Below, piece by piece: positions 14,499 through 57,109 of a stretch of 57,340 bases of DNA. Under the pieces are notes generated by a model. That model was not told where the DNA came from. It made no database searches and saw only the letters and a program-made list of their open reading frames with translations. The stretch covers positions 1 through 57,340 of the forward strand of contig CAZEQH010000005.1 of assembly GCA_964514375.1 (NCBI GenBank). Direction: 5' to 3'. The position numbers and the translations under genes are program-made. This DNA is from an uncultured Candidatus Saccharibacteria bacterium. Its GTDB lineage: Bacteria; Patescibacteriota; Minisyncoccia; Minisyncoccales; JANBVM01. Numbering within the stretch: the stretch's first letter is position 1; each line of letters begins with the position of its first letter.

Positions 14499-15224
14499 TT
14501 GGTTGAAAAAGAAAATATATCTCTTTATAAATTTCAGTACGGCGTTATCCGTTCTATTTACCACATCAATAAGGTGACGGAGTTCGGCTCGAATTGGGCT
14601 GTTTTTGCCCATCTGGTGGAATCTCTTTCTGATGTATCGGAATCCATGCGTAAAAAGGAACAGAAGAAGATTAACGAAGAAAAAGCAAAGGATATGATTT
14701 CTGAAAACATAACAGTTACGCTTAAGCGTATGCTTTGCTTGGCTAACCTTCTTGAAGTGAACGTAGAAGAGAGCGTATGGAACAAATATCCCAACGTATG
14801 CCCTTATTGTTTAAAAGAAGAAAACTGCAGATGCGGAAAATACGAACCGATTTATGAAAACAGGGAGGACGAATATCCAAAAAAACTTGATGATTACAGA
14901 AAAAAGCAGGAAGGAAGACCTAAGAACCTATATGAATTTCAGCTGATGTCAAAAAGGATTTACGGCAACGTTAACAAGGAAGACGGAAGAGAGTCTTTAA
15001 GGACAATACTGGACCATGTTTTTGAGGAAGCAGGGGAAATAAGTAAAGCTATTAGGATAAAGAACAGGAGTAATCTTAAGAATGAATTCGCAGACCTTTT
15101 TATGTGGATCGTAGCCTTCGCTAATGAACTTGGTATAGCGGACCTAGGGAAGTCTCTTTGGGATTTATACCCCGGTAGATGCCGAAAGTGCGGTAGAAAA
15201 GAATGTGAATGCAAAGTTTGTTAA
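14499..15224 (+). CDS. Tandem MazG-like nucleotide pyrophosphohydrolase with Cys clusters
   Basis: FEEAGE...EFADLFMW in the second repeat; CPYC-CRC and CRKC-CEC motifs; start codon uncertain. Confidence 0.75.
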   Translation: MVEKENISLYKFQYGVIRSIYHINKVTEFGSNWAVFAHLVESLSDVSESMRKKEQKKINEEKAKDMISENITVTLKRMLCLANLLEVNVEESVWNKYPNVCPYCLKEENCRCGKYEPIYENREDEYPKKLDDYRKKQEGRPKNLYEFQLMSKRIYGNVNKEDGRESLRTILDHVFEEAGEISKAIRIKNRSNLKNEFADLFMWIVAFANELGIADLGKSLWDLYPGRCRKCGRKECECKVC

Positions 15225-15314
15225 ATTGAAAATTACGCCCTCTAATTGTTTAGAGAGCTTTTTTTTTCGGAAAATTCTGCTAAAATAGTGTTATAAAATA
15301 AGCTTGATTTAAAT

Positions 15315-15971
15315 ATGAACAAAAAAGACATATTAAAGAGGATAGACCATACCAACATTGAAAAGGGAGCAAAGGCTGCAGACATTAAAAAGCTCTGCCT
15401 GGAGGCTAAGAAGTACGGCTTCAGGGGGGTCTGTGTGAGGCCGAGATGGGTAAGGTTGGCTAAACAGGAGCTCCGGGGCACTAGCATCAAGGTAGTAGTC
15501 CTGGTAGACGATCCCATGGGCCTCAGTCCTCACCAAAAAAGAGTTCAGGTTTGCAAAAAGGCCAAACGCGATGGAACAGACGACCTGGATATCGTTATAA
15601 ACATAGTTGATTTGAAATACGAAAGATACGATAAAGTACTCACGGATCTCAAAGGTATCTGTAAAATAGGCCCGACCAAGGTTATAATCGGTTCAGGCTA
15701 TCTTACGGACTCTGAGATAGAAAAGGCTTCTTCACTAGTCAAGAAGGCGGCATGTGAATGCGTCAAAACAGCCACCGACAAGGACCCCTTGGAACACAGA
15801 GAACTGAAGGAAAAATTCCATCATTTAAGGCTGATGAGAAAATCGGCCCCTGGACTGTTGATAAAAGTGGCAGGTAAAATAAAAACTCTGGAGGATGCTA
15901 AAGCCGCCGTCAAAGCAGGAGCGGACATTATCGGGACCAGCTCCGGAGTGGAAATCGCAAAAAAAATCTAA
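15315..15971 (+). CDS. deoC: Deoxyribose-phosphate aldolase (divergent)
   Basis: IDHT, VCV, VKTAT, IKVAG, IIGTSSG. Confidence 0.85.
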   Translation: MNKKDILKRIDHTNIEKGAKAADIKKLCLEAKKYGFRGVCVRPRWVRLAKQELRGTSIKVVVLVDDPMGLSPHQKRVQVCKKAKRDGTDDLDIVINIVDLKYERYDKVLTDLKGICKIGPTKVIIGSGYLTDSEIEKASSLVKKAACECVKTATDKDPLEHRELKEKFHHLRLMRKSAPGLLIKVAGKIKTLEDAKAAVKAGADIIGTSSGVEIAKKI

Positions 15972-28741: not shown

Positions 28742-29380
28742 ATGTTAATGATAAGATTATTCCGTGTAGGAAAAAGGAATCAGCCGATTTTTAAGATAGT
28801 AGTTACGGAAAAAAGGAACTCTCCGAAGAGAGGGCGTTTTACTGAGGAAATCGGTTTTGTAAACCCTTTAACCAAGGAAAAGAAAATAAATAAAGAGAGA
28901 GCAAGTTACTGGCTGTCGGTGGGGGCTCAGCCTTCAGCTACGGTATATAATCTTTTGATAGATGAGAAAATTATAAAGGGACAGAAAAAGAGAAAGCACG
29001 GAAAATCCAAGAAGAAAGTTTCTGCTGAAACTTCAGAAGAACAGGAAGTTAAAGCTGGAGCTGCAGAAGGGGAACAGGCAAAGGAGAAATCCAAGGAAGA
29101 AATTAAGGAGGAAGCGAAGGAAAAAACTCCCGAGGAAAAACCGGAAACCCCTATCAAGGAAGAGGAAAAAGAGCCCCAGGAGAAGGCTCAGGGACCAGAG
29201 CAGGAAAAAGAATCTGGCGCAGAACCAAAAGAAAAAAAAGAAACAGTTGAGGATAATAAAGAGATTGAAGCCCCCGAGAAGAAAGAAGAAATAGAGGCGC
29301 CGGAAAAAGGAGAAGAAAAAAGAGAAGAAAAAAGAGAAGAAGAACCTTCTGGAGAACGGGAAAATATAGAGGAAAAATAA
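28742..29380 (+). CDS. rpsP: 30S ribosomal protein S16 with long Glu/Lys-rich tail
   Basis: IRLFRVGKRNQP, GRFTEEIG, WLSVGAQPS. Confidence 0.93.
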   Translation: MLMIRLFRVGKRNQPIFKIVVTEKRNSPKRGRFTEEIGFVNPLTKEKKINKERASYWLSVGAQPSATVYNLLIDEKIIKGQKKRKHGKSKKKVSAETSEEQEVKAGAAEGEQAKEKSKEEIKEEAKEKTPEEKPETPIKEEEKEPQEKAQGPEQEKESGAEPKEKKETVEDNKEIEAPEKKEEIEAPEKGEEKREEKREEEPSGERENIEEK

Positions 29381-29479
29381 CCATTATTTTCGAGTTAATT
29401 CTATGAAATGAACGGAATCACCGTTCATTTTTGTGTAATAAATATCGTCTTTAGACGTCATACTATAAAGAGCACTAAT

Positions 29480-29637
29480 ATGGCCGAATTTTACTTACCA
29501 TTGTTATTTTTCTATTTTTTACCAAGAGGCCTTTTCGTCACTGCCACTACCTCTTCTTAGTGAGGTTGGTTTGTAGTTTAAATAAAAAAGTATATAACAC
29601 TGAAAAACAAACCAACCTCTCTGCGAAGAGGTTTTTT
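29480..29637 (+). promoter_or_regulatory. Attenuator-like leader (26-aa ORF 29480-29560 plus alternative hairpins), homologous to the thrS leader
   Basis: ORF ends GTC ACT GCC ACT ACC TCT TCT TAG; 13-bp 2:3 helix; AACCTCT/AGAGGTT terminator plus T tract. Confidence 0.7.
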
Positions 29638-29675
29638 CGTACTTTTACAATCAAAAATAAAGAGGTGAAAGCCGA

Positions 29676-29915
29676 ATGGAAAGCGAATTGGTATCAGTTA
29701 AGGATTTATTAATAGGAAGAGCCATTGTCGATATAAAGGAAATATCAGATAACCAGGGATGCAATATTATTAAATTTTGCCTGGATAATAACAGTGTCCT
29801 GGAGATGGGCATGAAAGACGGGATAAGAGACAACGGTATTTATCTGTACTCCTATTTATCTTTGGACGGCCGGGAAATATATAATGACGTTGACGGCCAA
29901 ATCAGCTCCTTCTAA
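29676..29915 (+). CDS. Hypothetical protein (79 aa)
   Basis: ORF with GAGGTG SD; followed by terminator 29927-29947. Confidence 0.6.
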   Translation: MESELVSVKDLLIGRAIVDIKEISDNQGCNIIKFCLDNNSVLEMGMKDGIRDNGIYLYSYLSLDGREIYNDVDGQISSF

Positions 29916-30050
29916 AGAATAATATTAAGGCCTTTCAGGCCTTTTTTATTACCTAATTCACTGTTTGGGCGGATGCCGAAGAACTCAGCCTGTTTCTCCC
30001 GTCGGGCGGGAGCGTAGTCGTTTATCCTGAACGAAGTCGAAGGAAATCCG

Positions 30051-30078
30051 TTGACAAATCATACTAAAATGTTATAAT
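30051..30078 (+). promoter_or_regulatory. Sigma70 promoter with extended -10
   Basis: TTGACA-16-TATAAT with TGn. Confidence 0.75.
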
Positions 30079-30313
30079 ATTAATAGTCGCGACTGGACAG
30101 AATCAAATAAAGATTCCCTTTCCTACACCATTCACGTAATGGTAGGGAAAGGGATGGAGGAGGGAGCACTTTTTATTACAAAATATAATCTCCTCCATCC
30201 CTTTCCCTATAGAGGGAATTGTTCTTTATAAGGAAAAAAGGGAAGAACCCTCGGATGGTGTAATTTGTTCGCTGAAAAAGAGAGGATAAATTACACCATC
30301 TGAGGTAAACTAG

Positions 30314-30595
30314 ATGAAAGAAAAAGTTTTTAAAGATGAGAAAGACATAGAAATATTCAGAAGGATCAGTATGCCTAACGTAGAAGATCTTTTGGATATA
30401 GAGATAGAAATCAAAAACCTGTCCAGTTTTTTCAACGAAGAGAGAGTTATGAAGGCGGTTGAAAAATTGATTATCCGCTTTGCCAGGATGGTTATTGTGT
30501 CTGGTATCACAACAGATCTCTTGGGGGACTGGTCAATGTTGGATAGAATAGACTCGTTTATAGAAGAGCTCAACAAAGAGTTAACATTATTTTAA
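30314..30595 (+). CDS. Hypothetical protein (93 aa)
   Basis: ORF with GAGGT SD buried in a long hairpin. Confidence 0.6.
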   Translation: MKEKVFKDEKDIEIFRRISMPNVEDLLDIEIEIKNLSSFFNEERVMKAVEKLIIRFARMVIVSGITTDLLGDWSMLDRIDSFIEELNKELTLF

Positions 30596-30782
30596 AATCT
30601 TCCTTTTTTCTTTTTTAATATTAACCCTGAGCTTGTCGAAGGGTTGACAAAGTCATCATAAACATTAATAATTTTAGTAGGCAGTAGCTTTTTTCTGAAT
30701 AGCCGTTTCTCCGAAATGATGGGAAACAGTTAGGCTGAAAGGTCGGGCTACTGGGAAAATACGAACGAATTCTGTTGGAACT

Positions 30783-31094
30783 ATGACAAAAGATTCAATT
30801 GACAAGGAATTTCTTGAGTATATTGTCAAAGCCTTAGTCGATAATCCCAGCGACGTCAAAGTTGATAGAAAAGTTGACGAAATGGGCGTATTACTTTCCC
30901 TGAAAGTAAACCCCGAAGATATGGGCCAAATTATCGGTAAGGGCGGCTCTACTGCTAGAGCTATCAGGAATCTGGTTCGGATTGTTGGGCTGAAGAATCA
31001 CGCCCGCGTGAACCTCAAAATAGAGGAACCAGAAGGCTCTGCTAAAGGAAAAAAGTCCTCAGCAGACGAAAGTCTTGAAGACTTAAAACTGTAA
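30783..31094 (+). CDS. khpA: KH-domain RNA-binding protein (KhpA/YlqC family)
   Basis: LEYIVKALVDNP, DMGQIIGKGGSTARAIR; in the rpsP-trmD neighbourhood. Confidence 0.88.
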   Translation: MTKDSIDKEFLEYIVKALVDNPSDVKVDRKVDEMGVLLSLKVNPEDMGQIIGKGGSTARAIRNLVRIVGLKNHARVNLKIEEPEGSAKGKKSSADESLEDLKL

Positions 31095-31160
31095 ATCTTA
31101 AACTCGATTTACTTTGCGAGAAAGCGATGCTATAATTATTAGCATCGTTTTCTTGTGTTT

Positions 31161-50692: not shown

Positions 50693-51529
50693 ATGAAAAA
50701 AACATTTATTCTGCTTATTGGCATCGTTCTTGCCACATTAATTACAGGTATTTTCACGGTTTGGTATTGTCCTGCCTGCCGCCAGAAGCTTTTCCCGCAA
50801 AAGGAAGCTCCGGCAGCTACTTTCCAGGAATGTGTGGACAGAGGGTACCCTGTTATGGAGTCCTATCCCCGCCAGTGCCGGACACCCGAAGGCAGGGTGT
50901 TTATTGAAGATATAGGCAACGAACTGGAGAAAGCGGATCTCATAAGAGTTTCAAACCCTCGCCCTAATCAATCCGTAGCCAGCCCCTTAACCATTAATGG
51001 GGAAGCCAGGGGTTACTGGTTTTTCGAAGCGAGTTTTCCCGTAGTATTGTTTGATGCAGAAGGCAATACGTTAGCCCAGGGTATTGCTCAGGCTAAGTCA
51101 GACTGGATGACCGAAGACTTCGTTCCTTTCGAGTCAGAGCTTCAGTTTGCAGCTCCTGCTACTGTGGAGGGAAATCTGGTTTTAAAGAAGGATAATCCTT
51201 CCGGGCTTCCGGAAAACGATGACGAACTGATAGTGCCTGTGCTGTTCAGTCAGGTCTCGCAGCTGCCCAATCCTGCTTCCGTTTACTGCGAGCAGCAGGG
51301 TGGTACTGAGGAAAATAGGGATTTCACGGCTGGAACTAAAGGATTTTGTATTTTTGATGACGATTCTGAGTGCGACGAATGGAACCTTATGCGGGGAAAT
51401 TGCCATGCGGGAGAAATTTTCTGCAAAGATCTCTGCGGAGACAGCCAGTGCCAGGAAATAGTCTGTGCGGCAGTGGGATGTCCTTGCGCCGAAACCCCCG
51501 TTTCCTGTCCCCAGGACTGCGGAGAATAA
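50693..51529 (+). CDS. Gmad2 Ig-like plus DUF333 plus Cys-rich exported protein
   Basis: FQECVDRGYPVMESYPRQC, GYWFFEASFPV, LPNPASVYCEQQGG. Confidence 0.8.
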   Translation: MKKTFILLIGIVLATLITGIFTVWYCPACRQKLFPQKEAPAATFQECVDRGYPVMESYPRQCRTPEGRVFIEDIGNELEKADLIRVSNPRPNQSVASPLTINGEARGYWFFEASFPVVLFDAEGNTLAQGIAQAKSDWMTEDFVPFESELQFAAPATVEGNLVLKKDNPSGLPENDDELIVPVLFSQVSQLPNPASVYCEQQGGTEENRDFTAGTKGFCIFDDDSECDEWNLMRGNCHAGEIFCKDLCGDSQCQEIVCAAVGCPCAETPVSCPQDCGE

Positions 51530-51671
51530 CTCCATTATATTGTGATTATCATTAAGAACAGCCTTGAATTAAAGGCTGTTCTCATTCAAGCTCTTATTTT
51601 CGAAGAATAATTCTTCTGACGTATAAGTATTCCTGGGTGAGAGTTTTCCACAGTTTTTACACTATGGAGGG

Positions 51672-51699
51672 TTGACACTATGACAGGGTCTGTTAAGAT
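51672..51699 (+). promoter_or_regulatory. Promoter of ncRNA candidate 1
   Basis: TTGACA-16-TAAGAT with TGn extended -10. Confidence 0.6.
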
Positions 51700-51705
51700 T
51701 TAAAA

Positions 51706-51980
51706 CGCAGACGGGAAAACTATGGGATAGTCTGCAAACACACTCGACGGTAATCCGTCACTTTGTAAATTTTTTACGAAGGTCCGCAAGGAGAGGGTTA
51801 GGTCCCATACAATGTATTTTTCAACGCACAGATAGCAGGTAATACTGCCGTCAAACAAAATATATACCTCGAAAGGGGAAATCAGGCGAAAGCTAGTTAT
51901 TATATATTAAATACGTTGAAAATAAAAATACATTGAAGAGAACAATCCGAAAGGAGAATCTCAAGACCACTCCTTTTTTC
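51706..51980 (+). ncRNA. Unidentified structured RNA candidate 1
   Basis: Many helices, four GNRA tetraloops, 8-bp pseudoknot, no ORF in the track. Confidence 0.6.
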
Positions 51981-52016
51981 TTTATACTGAGTAAAACCGA
52001 AGTATTTGTTTACATT

Positions 52017-52047
52017 AAAAAAGCCGGCTCTTACGAGGGCCGGCTTT
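52017..52047. terminator. Terminator-like hairpin
   Basis: AAAGCCGGCTCT-TACG-AGGGCCGGCTTT; the longer U tract is on the minus strand. Confidence 0.7.
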
Positions 52048-52278
52048 CAGTTCTATTATTATCCGACAGAGGTCCGACCTCTGTAAATTTATGAGCAAAG
52101 GAGGGAAGTATTTGTGGTGCCGCCTTTGGCCCGCTTCGCCGTCGAATCGGGGCGAGCGATCCTCGCCCGTTGGGCGGGAGCGAAGTCGTACATCATGAGC
52201 GGCGCCGAAAGAAACCACTTGTACTGGGCGAGCGGAGGAGAAGGAGGGAATGATCTTGTGGTGAGCTGCGCCGAACCA

Positions 52279-52307
52279 TTGACAAATTCAATAATATATT
52301 ATATAAT
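52279..52307 (+). promoter_or_regulatory. Perfect consensus sigma70 promoter
   Basis: TTGACA-17-TATAAT. Confidence 0.85.
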
Positions 52308-52314
52308 AGTGATT

Positions 52315-52735
52315 ATGATAGTGAGAAAAAATACAGAAGTATTTTCCTTCTCCTTCATTATTAAAAATTAGAACCGAGTGAGAAAGGTTTTAAATAGTCG
52401 CCTAAAAATCAACCCAAGAGGGTAAAGCACGACTGTTATTACCCACGGTAGAACAACGTTGACGGTTCCTGCTGCGCTGCGGCTAGAGAGCTGAGTGAAA
52501 TGACGCCAAAGAGAGGCGCCGAAGCAGGTATTGCACTATGGCTGAGATAGCAAAGTTCCTGTTTGTTCTAGGTAGGGGAAGAAAGCGTGTAAAGTAGCGG
52601 GCTTGACTATACCATTAACTCCTCGTTTCTATTTTCCAATTTTCTTACTTTTTGAGCCTTTCAGGCAGCTGGAAAGTTCAAAAAAGTTGACAGAAGTATT
52701 AAAAAAGGACGGCATCTCAAGGCCGTTCTTTTTTT
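52315..52735 (+). ncRNA. Unidentified structured RNA candidate 2 (with an 18-codon 5' sORF)
   Basis: Lies between a promoter and a terminator; long-range helices; no long ORF. Confidence 0.5.
52701..52735 (+). terminator. Intrinsic terminator
   Basis: AAAAAAGGACGGC/GCCGTTCTTTTTT. Confidence 0.8.
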
Positions 52736-52809
52736 AATGCTTAATTTGACAAGGAAATATTTTGAAACTAAATTAAAGTAGAAACTTAAATCATACAAAA
52801 GGAGGTGGT

Positions 52810-53073
52810 ATGAAAATGGGAGAGGTAATGCTCAGGTGTGAAAAGTGCAAACAGATAGTCGATGAAGACCCGAGGTGCTACCGGGAAGGATGCGACGGAA
52901 AACTGGAAATAGTTGCCGAAGACAAAACAGCCAACGTAGTTTTTTGCAAGAAATGCAGAAGGTCTTGCCTCATCGACGATTACAAAGTGCAGTGTCCTTT
53001 CTGCGGAAGCTCAGCGATATTTTTCATAACGGCAGACCTGGCTAAAAAAGAAAGGGAAAGAGCGGCATCTTGA
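52810..53073 (+). CDS. Double zinc-ribbon small protein
   Basis: CEKC, C-x4-C, CKKC, CPFC; AAGGAGGT SD; own promoter TTGACA-17-TAAATT at 52746-52774. Confidence 0.7.
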   Translation: MKMGEVMLRCEKCKQIVDEDPRCYREGCDGKLEIVAEDKTANVVFCKKCRRSCLIDDYKVQCPFCGSSAIFFITADLAKKERERAAS

Positions 53074-53091
53074 ATGCCGCCCTTTATTTTC

Positions 53092-53502
53092 TTATTGTCT
53101 TCTAGCTAAGGAAACGACTTTTGATTTGATGATATCCCTGATCTTCCGGACGCCATCCATGTTCTCGTGGTAGGGGTCTTTTATCTCCCAGAATACAGCC
53201 TTCTTGCTATTCAGCACAAAATCCGGGCAATATTGTTTCTGACACATAACAATTACTTTATCGCTTTCGTCTATCATTCCCTTGGTAACAATCTTCACTT
53301 TTTTATCGGACACATCAATTCCTTCCTCTTTCATTACTTCAATAATGTCTTCTGTGGGATGAGCGTATCTCTCAGGCGTTGTGGAGTCTACGCCCGCACT
53401 TATGGCTTCCCCGGAGCTGGTCAGATGATTGTAAAATGCCTCTGCCATCTGGCTCCTTCCTATATTCCCGCGGCAAATGAAAAGCATTTTTTTGTCACTC
53501 AT
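53092..53502 (-). CDS. Low-MW protein-tyrosine phosphatase / ArsC family
   Basis: FICRGNIGRSQMAEA P-loop, W-x-I-x-DP. Confidence 0.9.
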   Translation of the reverse strand: MSDKKMLFICRGNIGRSQMAEAFYNHLTSSGEAISAGVDSTTPERYAHPTEDIIEVMKEEGIDVSDKKVKIVTKGMIDESDKVIVMCQKQYCPDFVLNSKKAVFWEIKDPYHENMDGVRKIRDIIKSKVVSLARRQ

Positions 53503-53608
53503 AATTTGTATTACAAATAATACGATTAATAATTAAAGATAATTAATAGTTATGACTTTGGCAAATTCTTAATTTAAAAAAGAAAAAAATCTGATAATAT
53601 TAAAGCAT

Positions 53609-54325
53609 ATGGACAAATCTATTACCATATTATCGACCTTTGCCCAGGATAAAATTATCAATAAAGATGCGGGAACGGAAAGAATCGTAAGAGGCGGTCC
53701 TGCCTTTTATATTTCCAAAGTTTTTGAGGAAGAAAAATTACCATTCAATCTCATAACGGCTTCCAATGCCGAAGTAGAGATATTGATAAAAGAGGACAGT
53801 GAGAAAGGAAGATTAGTGAAAAAACCCGTTATTAAGAAAGTAGATTTTATTAAAATCAAAACTCCTTTTCTTCTGATTTCCACTATTCTGGATGATTTCG
53901 ATTTAGAAAATATATCTGCTTTTAAGGGTAAGGTGTTTTTAGATATACAGGGGTATGTGAGAGACGGAGAGAGATTTGGAGGAAAAAAATTGTACAATCT
54001 TCAGACGAAAGTACAGTCTTCGATATTCTGCTTAAAGGGAACGGAAGAGGAACTGAATTATATCCCTAGGAATTGGCTAACCTCCCAGAAGAAAAAAATT
54101 CTAATTATCACCAAGGGAAAGTCTGGATGTATTTTATTTACATCTGGAGAAGAGTTTGAGTTGAATGTTTCAAGAAAAATAGTTTCTCACAATACTATCG
54201 GAGCCGGAGACACTTTTTTTGCTTATATTATCAGTCACTTTATCAATACCAATAACATCAAGGAGAGTATAGGCTATGCCATTGAGAAAACCTCGGATTT
54301 TTTACTCTCTAAAAGCAGTCCATGA
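53609..54325 (+). CDS. PfkB-family carbohydrate/nucleoside kinase
   Basis: GGPAFY, IITKGKSG, NTIGAGDTF. Confidence 0.85.
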   Translation: MDKSITILSTFAQDKIINKDAGTERIVRGGPAFYISKVFEEEKLPFNLITASNAEVEILIKEDSEKGRLVKKPVIKKVDFIKIKTPFLLISTILDDFDLENISAFKGKVFLDIQGYVRDGERFGGKKLYNLQTKVQSSIFCLKGTEEELNYIPRNWLTSQKKKILIITKGKSGCILFTSGEEFELNVSRKIVSHNTIGAGDTFFAYIISHFINTNNIKESIGYAIEKTSDFLLSKSSP

Positions 54326-54382
54326 CAAGCTTTACGGTAGATAGAAATTAAGCTCGTAAATAGTTATTTTGCGGGCAATTTT

Positions 54383-55207
54383 TTATAATTTTGACTTAGT
54401 GTTAAAAAATCTCTGTTCAATATAATTCAGAATATCAACAACCCCCTTAGTATATGCTTTATTAGAAACGTAATCGGCTTCCTCCTTAACTTCACTCAGA
54501 GCATTTGCAACCGTAAAAAATCCCTCTGCTTCTTGACGTGTTTCTGAATCAATTAAATCGTCACCAATCATAAATAAAAGGTATTCAGGGTAAAATTTCC
54601 TTATTTTATTTAGAGCTTTTGTTTTGTTTACATATCGCGGCCAAAATATAACGTTTCCAAAAGATTTTGTACTTTCCACTGATAAGCCTAATTGTTTTTT
54701 AAGAAAATACTTTTTTAAAAAAATGCATAATTCATTCGCTAATCGGATATCTCTCTTTCCATATCGGAAGATGTGGACACTTCCTGTATACTTCCTAAAT
54801 TTATTCAGGAATATTCCGAGAGGAATTTTCTTGAGTTTTTTAGACCTGATAGCTTTTACCGTATTAGTGCTCGAAAACTGGCAGCTTAACCTGTTTTCCT
54901 TGATAAAAGCCTTTATCGCTTCAACTGACATTTTATTAAGCAAGGGAGGTCTTTTTATCAAAAAAATTTTTCGTGCATTTAAGGATTTTAAGAAATACAC
55001 CCCATTCTCTAAAATAACCGGACCATTGAGTCCAAATTGACTATAAATAGGTACGATATCTTCGAGTGAACGATTAGAGTTCAAACCAAAAAGCACTCCC
55101 AGCTTGGCTAACTTTTGGATAATAGAGGGTAACTTTTTGGTATTCGGACGTTGATTTGGTTGAATCAACGTACCGTCAATATCTAAAAAGGTTAATACTT
55201 TTTTCAT
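54383..55207 (-). CDS. HAD class IIB (Cof-like) hydrolase
   Basis: LDIDGTLI, ENG, VNKTKAL, MIGDDLID. Confidence 0.85.
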   Translation of the reverse strand: MKKVLTFLDIDGTLIQPNQRPNTKKLPSIIQKLAKLGVLFGLNSNRSLEDIVPIYSQFGLNGPVILENGVYFLKSLNARKIFLIKRPPLLNKMSVEAIKAFIKENRLSCQFSSTNTVKAIRSKKLKKIPLGIFLNKFRKYTGSVHIFRYGKRDIRLANELCIFLKKYFLKKQLGLSVESTKSFGNVIFWPRYVNKTKALNKIRKFYPEYLLFMIGDDLIDSETRQEAEGFFTVANALSEVKEEADYVSNKAYTKGVVDILNYIEQRFFNTKSKL

Positions 55208-55261
55208 AATATATTATATAAAAAAATAGAGTAGTATTTTTAAACTACTCCTTATTATGAA

Positions 55262-56161
55262 TTAATTAACGATTTTGTCCAGATACTTCTTGCCTTGATT
55301 AAAAAGTGCAAGTGCTTGTGTCGGCTCCTTTTCCATTCTAAATCGGGCCGAGAGGAAACATTGTAAAACTCTCCCTAAGAAAAATACTTTTTTAGCAATC
55401 TCATTCGATACCTCCAGGAGAGAAGCTACTTGACCCATTGCAAAGTCGTATAATAACTTATATCCTTCTATGGTTCCAGGAGCTTTATAAGCATCGCGCA
55501 CTACTCCGCCGAAACAAGCTAAATCAATTATGGGTATACCGAGAACATCCTCATGAGGATCTCCGTATTTAATTCCTTGAGGAGTCAAGTAGATATCTTC
55601 TGGAGTAAAATCCCAACTCGAGAAACAAGAAAATCGAAGATTGAGGGAATTTAAAAAATTTAAGAGTTTTCTGAGCTGCGGTAACGCCTTATTCAAGTCA
55701 AGAGGATTTAAATAACGTTCGTATTGTTCTATCACCTTATTCGCAACGCTAATTATCATACGCTTACTGTCTTCGCTAACGCGTAAACTTTCAAAATAGA
55801 TGGTTTGCATTTCCGTGATCAACCTTCGGAACAATTGGATTGGTTTCTGAGCTTGACGCAACAAAGTAATGAAATTGGGACCGCAATATTCCAGAAGAAC
55901 AAAAGCTGAATCCTTGGAAACCTGCGAGCCGATGATTGTTGGAATAAATTTATTCAATCCCATATTCTTTAGCTTCTGATAACCCGCAATATTCATCTGA
56001 ATCTCTGCAATGGTACGTTCAGTAGTCCCAATTTTTAATACTAGGGGACTGCCATCTTCCTGCTGGACTTTGTATACGGCGTTGCAAATGTTACCTCCCG
56101 TCAATACTTTTTCTACTTTAAGCCGGTATTTATTACAAATCATTAAAAGATATTCTTCCAT
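55262..56161 (-). CDS. APH/choline-kinase-like phosphotransferase (divergent)
   Basis: GGNICNAVYKV Gly loop, VLK, SWDFTPEDI and YGDP in place of HGDxxxxN and DFG; DLA. Confidence 0.6.
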   Translation of the reverse strand: MEEYLLMICNKYRLKVEKVLTGGNICNAVYKVQQEDGSPLVLKIGTTERTIAEIQMNIAGYQKLKNMGLNKFIPTIIGSQVSKDSAFVLLEYCGPNFITLLRQAQKPIQLFRRLITEMQTIYFESLRVSEDSKRMIISVANKVIEQYERYLNPLDLNKALPQLRKLLNFLNSLNLRFSCFSSWDFTPEDIYLTPQGIKYGDPHEDVLGIPIIDLACFGGVVRDAYKAPGTIEGYKLLYDFAMGQVASLLEVSNEIAKKVFFLGRVLQCFLSARFRMEKEPTQALALFNQGKKYLDKIVN

Positions 56162-56177
56162 TTTTGCACCTCCCGTC

Positions 56178-56813
56178 CTATATCAGTGAATCTAAATAAA
56201 AATCCGGTGTCCAATCTAAATGATTTTGTTTTCCAATCAAAGCAACAATACAACCCATCTTTTTCGCCATCTGTGCGTTTTCTGAATTATCTTCTACAAC
56301 GACTACTAGTTTTCCCTTCCCCAACTTTTCTTTCAAAGGATTGAAAGCTTCTGGTGCCGGTTTTATCATAAAATTCAACTCTTCCATGCCAAATATATTA
56401 GAGAAAAGAGATAATACCCCTAACGTTTTTAGGATTCGTCTAGCAAAATTCGAGGGATTATTTGTGAGTATGATTTTATCGCCCTTTAGACTAGATATCA
56501 ATTCGTAAAGAGGCTTAGACTCTCTAATCCCATAATCTTCAGGCGAGACAGAGAGGTATGTAGATTGAATAAAACGCGATACGTCTATTCCTTCATTCCT
56601 TAATGCTATGGCAGTATATCTAGTATCATACTTTCTTAACAAAGCTTCTCTTAATGCTTTTGCTTCACGGAAACCAATATTATACTCCTTTTTGATGAAA
56701 GCGACCATTAAGTTCTCTACGGCGGACTTGATTTCTTGTGTATTAGTATATAACGTCCCATCACAATCAAAAACCCATAAATCAGCAGGAATTTTTCTTA
56801 AACAGTTATGCAT
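56178..56813 (-). CDS. HAD class IA hydrolase (pyrimidine 5'-nucleotidase-like)
   Basis: VFDCDGTLY, ILTN, IKPAPEAF, VEDNSEN. Confidence 0.85.
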   Translation of the reverse strand: MHNCLRKIPADLWVFDCDGTLYTNTQEIKSAVENLMVAFIKKEYNIGFREAKALREALLRKYDTRYTAIALRNEGIDVSRFIQSTYLSVSPEDYGIRESKPLYELISSLKGDKIILTNNPSNFARRILKTLGVLSLFSNIFGMEELNFMIKPAPEAFNPLKEKLGKGKLVVVVEDNSENAQMAKKMGCIVALIGKQNHLDWTPDFYLDSLI

Positions 56814-57030
56814 GAATACACCTCCTTATTTTCTTATAAAAGTACGAATTAATTTATTGCATTACCTTTTTTTGGTACTATGCATATAAAACCATAACAG
56901 ACCAAGAAACTTTCGTCAATAATAACCATACTTAAATATTGATAATGATTAGCTTAACGGAGTCTTACATTCGTTTGACAGCGACTCGTTGTGATTTAAA
57001 AAAATCTACTGCATTGTTTTTATACAAGGC

Positions 57031-57059
57031 TTGACAAAGTTTTTAAACTCTGATATTTT
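57031..57059 (+). promoter_or_regulatory. Promoter of the T-box leader
   Basis: TTGACA-17-TATTTT with TGn. Confidence 0.6.
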
Positions 57060-57109
57060 AGTAAGCAGTTGTAAGAAATTTGAAAATTAGAAAATCCATA
57101 ACTAAGTCC

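Follow-up and report, generated by a model that had tools for sequence, protein, structure and literature searches.

A strain-restricted candidate non-coding RNA gene in a gene-free island of a Patescibacteria genome

Does the gene-free stretch downstream of a Gmad2/DUF333 gene on this contig encode an RNA and, if it does, is that RNA a regulator, a large molecule with a tertiary fold or the by-product of decaying DNA? The window, i.e., the whole stretch of DNA that was analysed (57,340 nucleotides), comes from a Patescibacteria (CPR, Parcubacteria-like) bacterium; of the 80 best relatives of a neighbouring protein, nearly all carry the labels Patescibacteria, Parcubacteria or Paceibacterota. 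The genomes of Patescibacteria are about 1 Mb long and densely coding, and to our knowledge almost no non-coding RNAs have been described in them. A 1.28-kb gene-free island that holds two strongly promoted and strongly folding units is unusual for this phylum. The preliminary description of the locus had reported about 275 nt without an open reading frame (ORF); the absence of ORFs was upheld, but the length was not, the real gap being 1.28 kb (51530-52809). The island is closed in every frame, under genetic code 4 as well, and its longest open stretch has 94 codons. From 5' to 3' it consists of a first unit, RNA A, which occupies its first third, a GC-rich block B, a second unit, RNA C, and a third promoter, after which the zinc-ribbon gene follows. 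Its two borders are:

50693-51529: Gmad2/DUF333 gene (278 aa), upstream border
52810/52816-53073, plus strand: zinc-ribbon ORF (85/87 aa; 85 aa from 52816) with four CxxC pairs and a very strong Shine-Dalgarno sequence, downstream border

The answer that we favour, tentatively and with somewhat less than even confidence, is that the plus strand of this Patescibacteria genome carries, in RNA A, a strain-restricted non-coding RNA gene of ~300-350 nt that is transcribed independently. The features on which this reading is based are as follows:

51672-51699, plus strand: sigma-70-type promoter of RNA A, consensus match 10/12, extended -10
51707-51809, plus strand: 5' domain, P1-P4 plus the proposed pseudoknot strands
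51707-51712 / 51730-51735, plus strand: P1, GCAGAC/GTCTGC, 17-nt loop
51746-51750 / 51755-51759, plus strand: P2, GACGG/CCGTC
51761-51769 / 51773-51781, plus strand: P3
51783-51792, plus strand: P4, TCC-GCAA-GGA
51810-51935, plus strand: central three-way-junction domain, 126 nt, AT-rich
51810-51826 with 51914-51919 and 51925-51935: central closing helix, 17 bp, 5-nt bulge
51831-51852, plus strand: central hairpin
51859-51866 / 51901-51908: AU helix AATATATA/TATATATT, which encloses two C-GAAA-G hairpins
51867-51878, plus strand: CCTC-GAAA-GGGG hairpin, one G-U pair
51885-51894, plus strand: GGC-GAAA-GCT hairpin, one G-U pair
51936-52019, plus strand: 3' segment, a small hairpin and then a C/U-rich stretch
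51938-51962, plus strand: small 3' hairpin, containing TCC-GAAA-GGA (51946-51955)
51966-51979, plus strand: anti-Shine-Dalgarno-like ACCACUCCUUUUUU in the C/U-rich stretch
52020-52047, plus strand: terminator of RNA A, GC-rich hairpin of 12 pairs with a 5' A-run and a 3' TTTCAGTT

The boundaries of the unit were examined at both ends. The promoter that had been proposed ahead of the RNA was confirmed as a sigma-70 extended -10 promoter: its -35 element (TTGACA, 51672-51677) is followed by a 16-nt spacer and by TAAGAT (51694-51699), with a TG at 51691-51692, one base 5' of the -10 element (TGtTAAGAT). TTGACA-type promoters are used elsewhere in this genome too, for example ahead of the L10 leader. 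The predicted transcription start lies at ~51705-51707, of which ~51706 is one base 5' of the first helix, and P1 begins 7 nt past the promoter. A repeat in direct orientation, formed by ACACTATGGAGGG (51658-51670) and ACACTATGACAGGG (51675-51688), straddles the -35 element and could be the operator of a regulator. At the other end, the terminator hairpin is flanked on one side by an A6, which reads as an uninterrupted U6 on the minus strand (52015-52047), whereas the U-run of the plus strand is interrupted. Folding of 52015-52055 gave z -5.0 on the plus strand and z -4.0 on the minus strand, and the terminator looks bidirectional. There is also a weak minus-strand promoter (52327-52298), from which an antisense transcript of block B of ~275 nt (z -2.4) that ends at the terminator at 52015-52047 could originate. 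Judged by consensus matches, RNA A would thus combine the promoter, the lack of coding capacity and the intrinsic terminator that are expected of a small-RNA gene, and we infer that it is transcribed and stable.

The plus strand of the region folds far better than expected from its composition. The minimum free energy of 51700-52050 was -100.2 kcal/mol (z -6.14; 0 of 100 shuffles were as good), compared with z -2.55 for the minus strand. As an in-genome control, 380 segments of 300 nt were folded on both strands over the whole window; 51700-51999 (+) ranked 6th of the 380 (z -6.7; its own minus strand -1.9), and among the six best segments it is the only one with an opposite strand outside the 25 best. 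Of the five segments that ranked higher, four come from two long symmetric hairpins (~29.6 and 30.2 kb), each represented by both strands, and the fifth is 15100-15399 (-). When RNA A was divided into its parts, the fold signal proved to come chiefly from one 126-nt domain, 51810-51935 (z -5.32 plus, -3.26 minus). The 5' domain (51706-51809) reached z -2.69 on the plus strand, where 1 of 200 shuffles was as good, and -1.62 on the minus strand, while the 3' segment (51936-52019; z -0.57 plus, 0.4 minus), of ~85 nt, is unstructured and its C/U-rich stretch is predicted to be unpaired or weakly paired. In the central domain, the long helices are inverted repeats with perfect Watson-Crick pairing, and hence they are uninformative about the strand and about RNA as opposed to DNA; the only plus-strand-specific elements of this domain are its two GAAA hairpins. 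The strand specificity of RNA A comes from small hairpins. Its fold includes 7 G-U pairs, in place of which the opposite strand would have A-C mismatches, and the preliminary claim that four GNRA loops favour the plus strand was borne out by the numbers of GNRA-capped hairpins, four for the plus strand versus one for the minus strand (P = 0.0018, dinucleotide shuffles), although a count of four per 281 nt is matched at two or three other sites in the window. Every helix that had been listed earlier is present in the sequence, and the long helix does enclose AATATATA/TATATATT (51859-51866 / 51901-51908); only its dimensions had to be corrected, from 16 bp with a 4-nt bulge to 17 bp with a 5-nt bulge.

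The region was also compared with known RNA families. Searching the whole window with Rfam 15 at gathering thresholds gave no match within 51530-52809, and at E<=10 with permissive filters, for 1.6 kb and 366 nt, there were only sub-threshold matches to small RNAs, of at most 23 bits and almost all due to the terminator hairpin. ARAGORN found no tRNA or tmRNA in 51530-52809 and seven tRNAs elsewhere in the window. The models of GOLLD, ROOL, OLE, HEARO, raiA, riboswitches and T-boxes remained without a match, and these identities were rejected for RNA A. The earlier statement that the hallmarks of RNase P, tmRNA, SRP and 6S RNA are lacking agrees with the absence of any matching Rfam 15 family, and with it the novelty of the locus stands.

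The preliminary description went further and saw in RNA A a ribozyme-like or scaffold RNA with tertiary structure; that it acts in this way and founds a class of its own among large structured RNAs, held together by a pseudoknot and GNRA contacts, we consider unlikely. Such a reading draws on the four C-GNRA-G hairpins carried by one strand, on the multi-branched fold (z -6) and on the fact that RNA A falls into no known family. The loop TATGGGAT (51721-51728) is indeed complementary to GTCCCATA (51802-51809), with 7 Watson-Crick pairs and one G-U pair (-11.6 kcal/mol), and this 8-bp complement adjoins the long helix, on which it could stack. However, a complement of at least 8 bp to the 17-nt loop of P1 occurred in 12% of the shuffles of the remaining RNA, so that the complement claimed earlier exists but does not exceed chance (P about 0.12). 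Of the four GNRA stems, three are just 3 bp long, other sites in the window have as many GNRA loops, the canonical 11-nt tetraloop receptor (CCUAAG/UAUGG) was absent from the RNA A region when checked by eye, and ~85 nt of the 3' end are unstructured. With the pseudoknot at chance level, no receptor seen and a z of -0.6 for the 3' third, the claim of a tertiary fold was not sustained, and from the standalone non-coding RNA of the preliminary description what stands is a plus-strand, ORF-free, stably folding unit that runs from a promoter to a terminator. RNA A resembles GOLLD (RF01998), ROOL (RF03087), OLE, raiA (RF03072) and HEARO (RF02033) in being multi-branched with several GNRA loops and in having no tie to a downstream gene and no obvious function. 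Unlike them, it matches none of the models at E<=10 and is shorter than most; moreover, these large ornate RNAs are widespread and show strong covariation, whereas RNA A is known from one strain cluster and no family could be assembled.

The distribution of the island among related genomes bears on all of these readings. Four other assemblies from different samples (L083, L084, L085 and L086) each contain parts of the region and agree with the window at 100% identity in whatever they cover of it; L084, a JGI contig, takes in the whole of 51530-52810, and its identity with the window extends over 50736-53700. The identical contigs derive from JGI 3300031692 and 3300031364 and from SRR8557364 and SRR9700623. 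The independent assembly of an identical sequence in four other samples excludes an assembly artefact, and these copies offer no variation in which base pairs could covary. In relatives that have the upstream gene, an ordinary protein gene follows 110-140 nt downstream and the island is absent. The closest of those with a contig that continues beyond the upstream gene is L081 (~77% nucleotide identity), in which similarity is lost ~30 nt past the stop codon of that gene and is replaced by a terminator of its own, a promoter and a DUF2178 gene, with no island. L081 and L090-L094 have a different gene downstream of the Gmad2/DUF333 homolog, and in distant relatives (60-68% amino-acid identity) a sigma-factor or other protein gene lies ~110 nt 3' of the upstream gene. 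The contig of L001 (~77-78% identity) stops 31 nt past the upstream gene and that of L082 likewise ends soon after it; the ~77%-identical relatives include the MAG with CAZMJM010000034 and JGI sample 3300057003. For the genes downstream of the island, the contig of the sole close LMWPc relative ends 10 nt past the LMWPc gene.

Searches for diverged homologs were carried out with nhmmer, as had been proposed in the preliminary description, and with a covariance model, and they yielded none in the collections searched. Neither RNA A, block B nor RNA C had an nhmmer match in 80 GTDB loci around Gmad2/DUF333 homologs, Patescibacteria loci totalling 0.87 Mb likewise gave no nhmmer match, and a covariance model of the central domain run over about 0.87-0.89 Mb gave one 22-bit match, which lies in coding sequence. 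There was no blastn match in phage and plasmid collections. A pattern scan of JGI metagenomes that required both pseudoknot strands returned the identical contig alone, and scans of IMG/VR with purine/pyrimidine-coded hairpin and pseudoknot patterns and with the core of block B returned one chance match in a phage coding region. Because no diverged homolog was found, no base pair of RNA A has comparative support; the preliminary description had counted missing covarying homologs among the things that would speak against a function, and this objection still stands. In a lineage that is so sparsely sampled, the missing homologs are an absence of evidence and do not prove that RNA A is functionless.

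The main rival is almost as likely as a regulatory RNA, although we would still call it unlikely when taken on its own: the island may be a recent, non-functional or decaying strain-specific insertion or remnant, e.g., palindromic or derived from a mobile element, in a variable region, with the fold as a by-product of inverted repeats and any transcript without a function. L081 and the more distant relatives without the island at the equivalent site are consistent with this, as are the perfect inverted repeats of the central domain, which fold significantly on both strands (z -5.3 and -3.3), the orphan status of the next gene and the lack of relatives of ORF 52114. The surroundings are strain-variable too, with a 2.7-kb indel and a drop from 100% to ~75% identity at 53700, and independent assemblies break within the central domain. 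Like MITEs and other palindromic insertions, RNA A contains an AT-rich 126-nt domain bounded by 17-bp perfect inverted repeats (51810-51826 and 51914-51935). Contrary to what is seen in MITEs, this domain is single-copy (17-bp arm, at most 2 mismatches) in the 57-kb window and in 0.87 Mb of related loci, its flanks (...CCCATA and AAGAGA...) are unduplicated, so that no target-site duplication is visible, and its interior hairpins are plus-strand-specific. A near-consensus promoter placed exactly at the first helix, a terminator 3' of the fold and the plus-strand specificity of the 5' domain and of the GNRA hairpins also argue against decaying DNA.

Two further readings assign RNA A to a partner gene, and we regard both as very improbable. 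In one, which resembles a type I toxin-antitoxin system, RNA A would act as an antisense antitoxin against the minus-strand mRNA of MRFSFRIVLFNVFLFSTYLIYNN, a 23-aa hydrophobic ORF (51893-51964) with a TTG start at 51964 and AGGAG 5 nt upstream. In its favour are the ORF itself, with a Shine-Dalgarno sequence and a hydrophobic product, and the fact that RNA A, with its strong promoter, covers this ORF entirely. Hydrophobic peptides, however, are the default product of AT-rich DNA, the start codon is TTG and the spacer is short, no credible minus-strand promoter was found between 51975 and the terminator, and a minus-strand transcript from further right would run into the hairpin and U6 at 52047-52015. 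The other reading takes RNA A for a long 5' leader, with a terminator that would gate read-through into ORF 52114-52371. The interrupted U-run of the plus-strand terminator, a Shine-Dalgarno sequence (GGAGG 9 nt before GTG) and start codon 65 nt downstream, and the lack of a plus-strand promoter between the terminator and ORF 52114 would fit such an attenuator; against it, that ORF is an orphan, crosses a consensus promoter and has a composition unlike that of the genome, no sequence competes with the terminator stem (no complement of GCCGG was seen by eye), and no riboswitch or T-box model matched. RNA A lacks the marks of a riboswitch or cis-acting leader, with ORF 52114 an orphan beyond a 12-bp GC-rich terminator and no antiterminator seen.

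The favoured reading, a regulatory RNA gene, can be formulated as follows. The near-consensus extended -10 promoter would drive transcription from the foot of the first hairpin (~51706). The body of the predicted transcript would consist of the four 5' hairpins and the 126-nt three-way-junction domain with its GAAA-capped hairpins, and the 3' part of a largely unstructured C/U-rich stretch and the intrinsic terminator at 52020-52047. RNA A might then perhaps act in trans, with the folded body providing stability or a protein-binding surface and with the exposed ACCACUCCUUUUUU (51966-51979) pairing with ribosome-binding sites. Among 65 starts in the window, the best partners of this stretch were the two that lie downstream of RNA A in the same island, ORF 52114 (-15.9 kcal/mol) and ORF 52810 (-15.2 kcal/mol). 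Its pairing scores, however, track generic anti-Shine-Dalgarno complementarity (Spearman rho 0.82), and duplexes of the whole of RNA A with 63 start regions gave no target that was better than with shuffled RNA; given these two outcomes, pairing with ribosome-binding sites is an inference and not a result. The regulatory reading is further limited by a fold signal that is mainly an inverted repeat and is significant on the minus strand also, and by the location of the uninterrupted U-run of the terminator on the minus strand.

Known stand-alone small RNAs of the Gram-positive type, such as RsaE/RoxS-like RNAs, have their own promoter, a structured body, a C/U-rich unpaired seed and an intrinsic terminator. 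RNA A is similar to them in its sigma-70-type promoter, its terminator and the absence of an ORF, and likewise in an unpaired, C/U-rich stretch with complementarity to Shine-Dalgarno sequences and in its restriction to a strain or lineage. It differs in being long (~350 nt), in having a more branched body with more GNRA loops, in lacking detected homologs and in having targets that are only predicted. We know of no RNA chaperone context in Patescibacteria. RNA A is a genuine candidate, with clear limits, for a non-coding RNA gene that is an orphan, belongs to no described family and comes from an understudied phylum; as one unconserved candidate, its value is that of a target for metatranscriptome mapping and not of a discovery. 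If expressed and functional, RNA A and RNA C would give access to RNA-based regulation in a lineage that is uncultivated and episymbiotic.

The remainder of the island, with RNA C, comprises the following features:

52100-52280: block B, GC-rich, separates RNA A from the next promoter; promoter-upstream module, duplicated in part
52114-52371, plus strand: ORF of 85 aa, called as a gene in public data, which spans block B and the RNA C promoter
52279-52307, plus strand: promoter of RNA C, perfect consensus TTGACA-17-TATAAT
52312-52742, plus strand: RNA C, ORF-free, predicted transcript of ~430 nt with a multi-branched fold
52700-52740, plus strand: terminator of RNA C, good

RNA C folds with z -4.07 on the plus strand and -2.17 on the minus strand and, like RNA A, had no match in Rfam 15. 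ORF 52114-52371, which is GC-rich and then AT-rich, had no relative among 1.84 billion representative proteins; because of this and because it runs across the promoter of RNA C, it is probably a false gene call. The four CxxC pairs of the downstream border protein suggest two zinc ribbons. No homolog was found among 5.8 billion proteins and no match in Pfam, PADLOC or PHROG, and a comparison with the PDB gave weak matches to the zinc ribbons of RNA polymerase subunit P (E 0.1). PADLOC, PHROGs and PDB searches of the neighbouring proteins indicated no defence or phage context. An improbable extension, to which we give slightly less weight than to a tertiary-structured class for RNA A by itself, is that RNA A and perhaps RNA C are the first members of new, Patescibacteria-specific non-coding RNA classes, ornate and with tertiary structure, and that a small exchangeable island carries them along with an orphan zinc-ribbon protein, by which they are possibly bound.

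Several minor observations concern the island and its surroundings. A tandem duplication of its two halves was considered as an origin of the island and was rejected, the local alignment score being not above that of shuffles. The heptamer ACTATGG occurs three times in the island, including the P1 loop (51719) and RNA C (52535), which by our estimate is the chance expectation for a 7-mer within 1.28 kb, and the hairpin TCCGMAAGGAGA, which is present twice, is by a similar estimate not above chance. Contigs of independent assemblies break in or just past RNA A, with the end of L083 at 51827 and the starts of L085 and L086 at 51880 and 51999, respectively, and these breaks could be due to hairpin-related loss of coverage or to strain heterogeneity in the central domain. 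Downstream of the island, L084 falls abruptly from 100% to ~75% identity at 53700, inside a PfkB-like gene, and lacks 54326-57083 of the window (a 2.7-kb indel with three minus-strand genes); the change at 53700 suggests a recombination boundary or a gene-content polymorphism beside the island.

Block B contains two pairs of repeats, GGAGGGAA..TTGTGGTG at 52100 and 52244 and TGAGC.GCGCCGAA at 52196 and 52262. Its core, GGGCGGGAGCGWAGTCGT, has one further copy in the window, at 30004, just 5' of a TTGACA promoter. At three promoters (30028, 30628 and 52262), the -35 TTGACA is preceded at a distance of 3-9 nt by a motif of the form TGARC-N3-7-YCGAA, with a decayed duplicate at 52196 and related stretches at 29995-30053 and 30628-30655; this promoter-upstream module could be the site of a regulator or a mobile promoter cassette. 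The two long, near-perfect hairpins at 29500-29800 and 30100-30400 are the strongest of the window (z -7 to -12 on both strands) and sit in a gene-poor stretch (29380-31155); one of them forms part of the leader of ORF 30314-30597, 3' of a consensus promoter.
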